Of a DNA stretch of 64,000 nucleotides, positions 61,452-62,394 are shown one piece after another. The stretch comes from Escherichia coli (GTDB lineage Bacteria > Pseudomonadota > Gammaproteobacteria > Enterobacterales > Enterobacteriaceae), in the NCBI RefSeq assembly GCF_044324875.1, contig NZ_CP172185.1; one strand, 5' to 3'. The notes under the pieces were generated by a model that had not been told where the DNA came from, did no database searches, and saw nothing but the letters and a program-made list of their open reading frames with translations. The translations under genes and the position numbers were made by a program. Every line of letters starts with the position of its first letter. Positions within the stretch are counted from its first letter, which is position 1.

Positions 61452-61832
61452 TCAACCGAGGTCGCTGCAATAAACCATCGCGCTTTGATTCCCCCGATGA
61501 AGAGGTGACTGGCAGCGACTTCCTGAGCGACGACTTGTCTTTCCATCAATAGCGACTACCTGAGAAGATAAAACAGGAAGGACTTCTGAACCCCATCGCC
61601 GGAACGCAGCTTCAAACTGCTCAGGGACAATCAGCCCAAAAAGACGGGCGAATGTATCATGGGAAGGTATGCCATTTTTTAGAGGTAAAAAACTGGCGGA
61701 GCCACTCAATGCGTTGCCTGCCCAGAGCTCAATTTCCTGAAAATTATCCGCACCGACCAGCACACCACAAACGGCAATGGTCAATGTATCAACCAGAGTG
61801 TGCCTGACTTGTCCAGGGCTGACAGGGATCAT
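61452..61832 (-). pseudogene. ISAs1-family (H-repeat-associated) transposase, N-terminal remnant
   Basis: LVDTLTIAVCGVLVGADNFQEIELWAGN...NGIPSHDTFARLFGLI...VVAIDGKTSRRS aligns with the N-terminus of K-12 H-repeat proteins (YhhI type) as recalled; the frame then degenerates. Confidence 0.7.
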
Positions 61833-61944
61833 GTATTGAGATGAATATATCGGTAACCGGCGGTATATGAGACATAATATATCCCTTTGATAAAAAAGGT
61901 TATGTTGACATATTTATCCTGCATGTCACGTATCATTATTTTTC

Positions 61945-62082
61945 ATGCGATTGCCCTGCGGTTACCACCGCTCACAGTTAGTAAAGGACTGGGCGGAAGT
62001 GGTCAATATAAGGTTGCATTACCTTCCTCCTTATAGTCCGAATCTGAATCCGATTGAACGGATGTGGAAAAATGCTGCTTAA
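61945..62082 (+). pseudogene. IS630-family transposase, C-terminal remnant
   Basis: Translation ...DWAEVVNIRLHYLPPYSPNLNPIERMWKNAA-stop carries the IS630/Tc1 DDE-region signature; only ~45 codons, no N-terminus. Confidence 0.65.
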
Positions 62083-62394
62083 TAGTATTGATGTTCATCT
62101 TTATGCCTCTAAAAGAAAGCATAAGATCACAACAGGCTCAGCAGGTCAATCACTCTATTTTTGTTCAAAAAACGTTCATGATCTTGCCCTACCCAATTTT
62201 GTGGGTAAGGATATGCGATGAAATTCTCCTTGCAGTTTAATACAACCTTTCCATATTAAGCGGCAGTATTACCTGCCAGTCAGGATAATTTTACACCTAA
62301 TGTTAGTTAAAATTTGTGCAACTTGAAACAATAATACTACAGTATCCACTATCGTCAGCACACCTCAAATACTATTTTTTATGAAACGTTTATT

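Follow-up and report, generated by a model that had tools for sequence, protein, structure and literature searches.

The interval that separates the TPR gene from the AT-rich cassette of this Escherichia coli genomic island is best described, with a probability of roughly 85%, as an inert, nested stack of three insertion sequence (IS) remnants lying between convergent genes, and as the trace of the import of a TPR module into an island built of an integrase and a cassette. The stack comprises a defective ISAs1-family element (A), an internal fragment of an IS630-family transposase gene, and a stub from the left end of another ISAs1-family element (B). No active transposase can be made from any of the three remnants.

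The window, i.e., the whole stretch of 64,000 nucleotides that was analysed, belongs to an E. coli chromosome in which rhtA, dps, and glnH (55667–58518) are followed by a P4-type tyrosine integrase gene (58736–59929), the TPR gene (60295–61350), the IS debris, and an AT-rich block that opens with an EcsC-family gene (62395–63063, minus strand). The integrase module (58555–60015, plus strand) consists of an attL-side arm, the integrase coding sequence with its Pfam matches (Arm-DNA-bind_3, Phage_int_M, and Phage_integrase), and 86 bp downstream of it. A 42-bp stretch (60016–60057) leads from there to the TPR module; it varies between island alleles and has no match to anything searched, including the loci of strains EF5-18-41 (L004) and LH50-c (L005) that are used for comparison below. 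The AT-rich cassette begins at 62192 on the minus strand, runs past the window end at 64000, and shows 95.2% identity to positions 12001–13797 of the EF5-18-41 locus together with an EcsC Pfam match; the positions 62192–62394, which the sequence-only reading had placed within the debris interval, are cassette sequence. The GC content lies at 0.47–0.51 upstream versus 0.31–0.38 in the cassette, and falls from about 0.47–0.50 to 0.34–0.36 across the debris. No Rfam family reaches threshold in 58000–64000, and promoter-like and terminator-like sites are not commoner there than in shuffled sequences. The remnants occupy the gap between the 3′ ends of the TPR gene (plus strand) and the EcsC gene (minus strand), and their persistence is explained by this placement, because remnants between two convergent 3′ ends disrupt nothing. 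As a side observation, several genes of the cassette (window 62395–64000; L001 21096–27943; GC 0.31–0.38) code for envelope proteins that are second copies or relatives, namely an EcsC-family protein, an OmpW-like beta-barrel, YebF, DolP/BON, and DoxX; after these come sitA and a truncated sitB.

Element A (61401–61958, minus strand) measures 558 bp, keeps both of its ends, and is devoid of the DDE core. Its visible ORF (61452–61832, minus strand) matches Pfam DDE_Tnp_1_assoc (PF13808, E = 4.5e-22) and NCBIfam transpos_ISAs1 (NF033564, model positions 2–99 of 314) at 89.6 bits against a cutoff of 70, and no match to the catalytic domain DDE_Tnp_1 (PF01609) occurs in the element. The assignment of A to the ISAs1 family is based on this transposase homology and on inverted repeats that begin with CAGGG. 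The left inverted repeat (IRL; 61942–61958, CAGGGCAATCGCATGAA on the minus strand) is intact; it is identical to the IRL of ISPa60 and to the family consensus, and agrees at 17 of 17 positions with the consensus at both ends of 14 full-length elements (1.22–1.39 kb). The putative right inverted repeat (IRR; 61401–61418, CTGGACAAATGTAATGAA on the plus strand) is degenerate, and its assignment relies on about 13 of 17 matches, interrupted by one inserted base, plus its position directly after the stop codon (TTCATTACATTTGTCCAG), where it is collinear with the IRR of nine family members. The outer base of the element is 61401, exactly where homology to lpxM ends.

The coding content of A falls into two pieces. 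The N-terminal part of about 126 transposase codons (61497–61875) is recognized by Pfam and NCBIfam and reaches tblastn identities of 61% to ISPa60, 72% to L007, and 75% to L010; the C-terminal part (61421–61495) holds the last 24 transposase codons, GGIKARWFIAATSVDYMPALLGLS, with the stop, matches residues 350–372 of the 373 in ISPa60 (tblastn 74%, E = 2.7e-6), and shows 80% nucleotide identity to L007 4044–4094. Homology to ISPa60 extends to residue 126 (61497) and resumes one base on at residue 350 (61495–61427), which places an internal deletion at about 61496 through which residues 127–349 or so (about 223 codons, with the DDE_Tnp_1 domain) are gone and the two halves are joined out of frame. 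The native start of the transposase is the ATG at 61875, where A reads MSHIPPVTDIFISIHDP and ISPa60 reads MSHHIPISDVLVAINDP; this native frame closes after 28 codons as a result of a frameshift near 61815–61820 (near codon 19), and because of this frameshift, the visible ORF begins at an internal ATG at 61832. No target-site duplication surrounds the element, since its flanks, TCCCCCTGAC and CGGTTACCAC, are unrelated and come from lpxM and IS630, respectively. In comparison with ISPa60, element A shares the IRL, an N-terminus of 61% identity over 110 residues, the 23 C-terminal residues at 74%, and the general layout of inverted repeat, leader, transposase gene, stop, and inverted repeat; it differs in being 558 bp instead of 1.22–1.39 kb long, in its deleted core, its frameshift, and its degenerate IRR, and in lacking the 9–10 bp target-site duplication that ISPa60 carries in L006.

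An intact parent of element A was sought in several collections. Apart from the same locus, a search of 5.8 billion proteins returned just truncated or frameshifted relatives of at most 79% identity; a scan of genome contigs gave a best amino-acid identity of 65% (Vreelandella/Halomonas), and tblastn against plasmids a best of 61% (ISPa60). When the internal part of L010 was used as the query for a full-length relative in E. coli genomes, the sole match was ISPa60 on one plasmid. Among near-full-length relatives, the closest detected was a frameshifted copy from Klebsiella oxytoca (L010), with 76% nucleotide identity and no recognizable right end. Because no full-length parent above 76% nucleotide identity was found, the endpoints of the deletion in A are fixed to within a few bases only. 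A variant of the same locus (L008) bears additional indels. A literature search on deletion derivatives of ISAs1 elements returned nothing relevant.

The second remnant (61960–62070, plus strand) consists of 111 bp from inside an IS630-family transposase gene similar to that of ISEc40; it corresponds to residues 253–289 of 341, with 88.3% nucleotide identity to ISEc40. The surrounding ORF (61945–62082, plus strand) matches Pfam DDE_3 (PF13358, profile positions 89–128 of 146) with E = 2.8e-13 and 50.4 bits against a cutoff of 28.6, and NCBIfam transpos_IS630 (NF033545, model positions 233–271 of 299) with 57.4 bits, a score that lies under the full-length cutoff of 100, as is expected of a fragment; the profile scores of both transposase ORFs, in A and here, are far beyond chance. 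The piece encodes the motif PPYSPNLNPIE, a form of the conserved stretch PPYSPxLNPIE. It amounts to about one tenth of ISEc40, and both of its borders are internal IS630 sequence: the N-terminal part and the last 52 or so residues are missing, and neither IS630 terminal repeats, nor a TA duplication, nor a complete transposase was found, as the homology to ISEc40 is confined to these 111 internal bases. Its boundaries do not vary when it is compared with the ISEc40 copies of plasmids and of about 580 E. coli genomes, and among plasmids no closer IS630 parent than 88.3% was detected. On either side, the fragment is bordered by ISAs1 elements.

The third remnant, stub B (62071–62191, minus strand), retains the IRL (62175–62191), the leader, the ATG at 62098, and 10–11 codons of a second ISAs1-family element. 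Its best counterpart is the 5′ end of an ISAs1 element on the Vibrio navarrensis plasmid pVN20-VB00237, to which it is 73% identical over 121 bp with a 17-nt identical stretch at the inverted-repeat end; the first residues (MNINTIKQHFS in B, MNINTIKAHFS in V. navarrensis) agree at 10 of 11 positions, and the inverted repeat, TAGGGCAAGATCATGAA, resembles the CAGGGCAA-type ends of the family. The stub thus combines a family-type terminal repeat with a transposase start, and differs from the Vibrio element in that everything beyond the first 10–11 codons is replaced by the IS630 fragment. The junction between the two falls at 62070/62071 ± 3 bases, where a few bases of microhomology are possible. 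The outer end of B (62191) lies exactly at the point where homology to the cassette of EF5-18-41 starts (62192).

These results largely agree with the sequence-only reading of two remnants, one of the ISAs1 family on the minus strand and one of the IS630 family on the plus strand, as the Pfam and NCBIfam matches place both families at the positions and on the strands proposed, and no intact, full-length IS is present. The IS630 piece had been taken for a C-terminus, and although the family is right, the fragment is internal to the gene. The extents also required revision: the ISAs1 remnant is larger than its ORF and fills 61401–61958, the third remnant at 62071–62191 had been overlooked, and a tail of lpxM precedes the debris. 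The view of the interval as a recombination scar in a mosaic island holds. The TPR/lpxM homology ends at 61400, that to ISEc40 spans 61960–62070, and the cassette begins at 62192; each IS border coincides with a homology break and thus marks a real recombination junction, and the flanks of A are unrelated and without a target-site duplication. The biology is known, and two of the three remnants are already annotated in RefSeq: in identical loci of nine complete E. coli genomes, PGAP labels one “ISAs1 family transposase” and the other “transposase, incomplete, missing N- and C-terminus”.

The TPR module (60058–61400, plus strand; TPR protein CDS 60295–61350 with TPR Pfam matches) has a recognizable source. 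Over 1346 aligned bases, it is 98.0% identical to positions 4758–6103 of the locus in strain LH50-c, where the TPR gene stands tail-to-tail with lpxM. The homology enters lpxM by 25 bp and ends at 61400, leaving in the window the 3′ tail (last codons and stop) of an lpxM/msbB-type gene at 61376–61400 on the minus strand, which corresponds to 6079–6103 within the annotated lpxM CDS of LH50-c. The segment of independent origin is the TPR module plus the debris, not the cassette. The 351-residue TPR gene occurs in varied settings (window 60295–61350; L005 4996–6051; L105 3006–4124): in LH50-c, it adjoins an operon of lpxM, CptA, glycosyltransferase, and deacetylase genes flanked by IS110 debris (one chromosome), and in L105, it adjoins the eatA autotransporter gene on an ETEC plasmid.

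A sister island in E. coli EF5-18-41 (NZ_CP063492), inserted at ulaE/ulaF, was used for comparison. Its integrase is homologous (83% amino-acid identity), and an AT-rich spacer of 118 bp separates this integrase from the same cassette (genes for EcsC, a hypothetical protein, an outer-membrane protein, YebF, DolP, DoxX, and sitABCD), with neither a TPR gene nor IS debris between the two; the place of the spacer is taken in the window by 2176 bp (60016–62191), namely the 42-bp stretch, the TPR module, and the three IS remnants. The spacer is unrelated to 60016–60057. The integrase module aligns with L004 10421–11882 at 84% overall, and the sliding identity amounts to 95–97% in the attL-side arm and the 5′ end of int, 72–77% in its centre, and 88–92% at its 3′ end; the cassette reaches about 89–99% per 200-bp window (mostly 95–99%) and 95% overall. 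The backbone on either side of the insert in the window is thus 95–98% identical to EF5-18-41, and because the flanks match on both sides, integrase and cassette share one backbone. The centre of int alone has a different history from this backbone, and the cassette is the usual partner of this integrase family. The two islands have in common the attL-side sequence, the EcsC-OMP-YebF-DolP-DoxX-sit cassette (95–98%), and the same kind of hairpin target; they differ in that sitABCD is intact in EF5-18-41 and truncated in the window-type island. As a separate observation, the integrase gene is mosaic relative to the sister island (58555–60015 versus L004 10421–11882), which may relate to the differing insertion sites.

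The order in which the stack arose is given here as an inferred model. The ancestor would have resembled the island at ulaE/ulaF, in which the AT-rich cassette comes directly after the integrase. ISAs1-B would then have inserted immediately to the left of the cassette, and an IS630 copy would have been joined to it through illegitimate recombination. The subsequent transposition of ISAs1-A into the IS630 transposase gene is suggested because the intact IRL of A abuts internal IS630 sequence. In a fourth step, a second copy of ISAs1-A, residing in lpxM beside a TPR gene, may have recombined with the first, bringing in the TPR-lpxM segment and replacing the 118-bp spacer; alternatively, the TPR module may have been imported through an IS-mediated rearrangement (deletion or inversion). 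As the right end of A abuts lpxM, the TPR-lpxM segment probably arrived by one of these two routes. ISAs1-A would afterwards have lost its core and decayed, and the completed block would have spread with the island to several chromosomal sites. No intermediates were found, for instance an island whose cassette adjoins an intact ISAs1-B or IS630; complete E. coli genomes hold just two end states, the window type and the EF5-18-41 type, and neither of these is derivable from the other by one simple event.

Against this reading, the sequence-only reading had suggested that the AT-rich cassette may have arrived on its own; the debris would then mark where it was joined to an integrase whose original cargo was different, namely the TPR gene. 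The GC drop across the debris speaks for such a junction, which is real, and the centre of int (72–77%) is more diverged than the cassette (about 89–99%), so that the histories of the two are not fully identical. However, in EF5-18-41 the integrase is followed directly by the same cassette, the flanks of int (95–97%) are as similar as the cassette itself, and the spacer between them is AT-rich like the cassette; moreover, the foreign pedigree belongs to the TPR module, which is 98% identical to the TPR-lpxM locus and ends inside lpxM. Independent arrival of the cassette is not supported by this comparison, and the proposal as a whole is unlikely. A different objection would be that the 558-bp element A is no scar at all but a live, non-autonomous, MITE-like element that is mobilized in trans and was simply inserted. 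Like MITE-like IS derivatives, A keeps both ends, the left one perfect, and has lost its transposase core, and NZ_AP045773.1 contains a second, unlocated match to 61401–61900. Such derivatives are recognized by multiple dispersed copies with target-site duplications; A, in contrast, is single-copy apart from this one extra partial match, has one decayed end and no target-site duplication, is flanked by sequence from unrelated sources (lpxM and IS630), and occurs in one context only across the loci examined (nine complete genomes and ten sampled loci), while no cognate full-length helper element was detected in the 5426 genomes of its host species. An insertion of this kind is accordingly considered highly improbable.

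It could also be argued that the 126-residue ORF, which holds the DDE_Tnp_1_assoc domain only, is a domesticated DNA-binding protein kept for its function, since it figures in RefSeq as an intact CDS and 2187 indexed blocks of the assembly collection contain exactly this protein. Yet the ORF starts at an ATG that became its start through the frameshift, its last 14 residues are an out-of-frame read-through over the deletion junction, the L008 variant of the same locus has suffered further indels, and the ORF is no better conserved than the surrounding non-coding DNA, which is likewise 100% identical; domestication is thus given next to no credence. Taken more broadly, the chance that A can still be mobilized in trans by a related transposase, or that the ORF is expressed as a DNA-binding regulator or inhibitor, is put at a very low level; if either were true, the debris would be a functional passenger instead of a fossil. 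The reading of an inert stack that accompanied the import of the TPR module is retained, and an assembly artefact, which was also considered, is ruled out by the identical locus in nine independent complete genomes and many draft assemblies.

With respect to distribution, nine genomes among the 5426 complete ones of E. coli, mostly from poultry, contain the 1.2 kb around the debris at 99.9–100% identity, and in ten loci sampled from a larger collection, which represent three chromosomal contexts, the block 60016–62260 (2245 bp) is 98.6–100% identical. The block of integrase, TPR gene, debris, and cassette is found in identical form at at least four chromosomal sites, i.e., beside glnH, beside lptG, at a DUF559/ABC-transporter locus, and at yjdP/rpiB (L099, L102), from which it follows that the scar is older than the spread of the island. 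Other ISs have since taken the place of the integrase in L099 and L103. The genome with the lptG site has the first 15 kb or so of the island in identical organization, together with all of the IS debris downstream. The locus is likewise annotated in NZ_CP033635, where the island, of about 26.7 kb, reaches glnP, which assigns the insertion to the glnH–glnP spacer. Within 58519–64000, the window shows 61 differences from NZ_CP033635, every one of them in 58536–60772, from the integrase to the first half of the TPR gene, and none in 60773–64000; two alleles of the left part are thus combined with one identical debris-plus-cassette segment. In NZ_AP045773.1, the island departs directly after yebF into other cargo, and the second match to 61401–61900 in this sequence, more than 20 kb from the island, may belong to a second partial island copy.

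Decayed IS fragments at the module junctions of genomic islands are routine, and the debris alone matters little. Its value lies in three points. The annotated “transposase” CDS is to be corrected to a frameshifted, core-less relic; at present, RefSeq lists this relic of 110/126 residues (WP_157902269.1 and WP_072048112.1) under “ISAs1 family transposase” like any ordinary CDS, instead of as a pseudogene. The junctions at 61400/61401, 61958–61960, about 62070, and 62191/62192 offer base-exact markers for tracing the island lineage. Finally, the late arrival in the island is the TPR gene, which is also present on virulence plasmids, and not the AT-rich cassette of envelope-protein genes.

Attachment of the island at a dispersed extragenic palindrome by means of a tyrosine integrase would be of greater interest than the debris. 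The glnHPQ operon is interrupted by the island at the glnH–glnP spacer, and at all sites examined a CCCC-N3/4-GGGGAGG hairpin lies immediately to the left of the left junction of the island; the hairpin is contained in longer palindromes such as CCCTCACCCCGGCCCTCTCCCCAATGGGGAG, as is seen at 58545–58577 in the window (attL), at about 3670–3700 in L003 (attR), and at the left junctions of L095, L099, L102, L104, and L004. These palindromes appear to resemble the BoxC extragenic repeat family of E. coli. Integration into a dispersed palindrome at multiple sites, instead of into a tRNA gene, is suggested by this pattern; no relevant paper was found in a literature search on islands that target BoxC-type repeats. 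Paired direct repeats of the form TGGGGGCTA(N5-6)TGGGGGCTA are located close to either end of the island (window 58700–58730; L003 about 3585–3612); they look like arm-type integrase binding sites, in which case attL and attR would be intact and the island may still be excisable.
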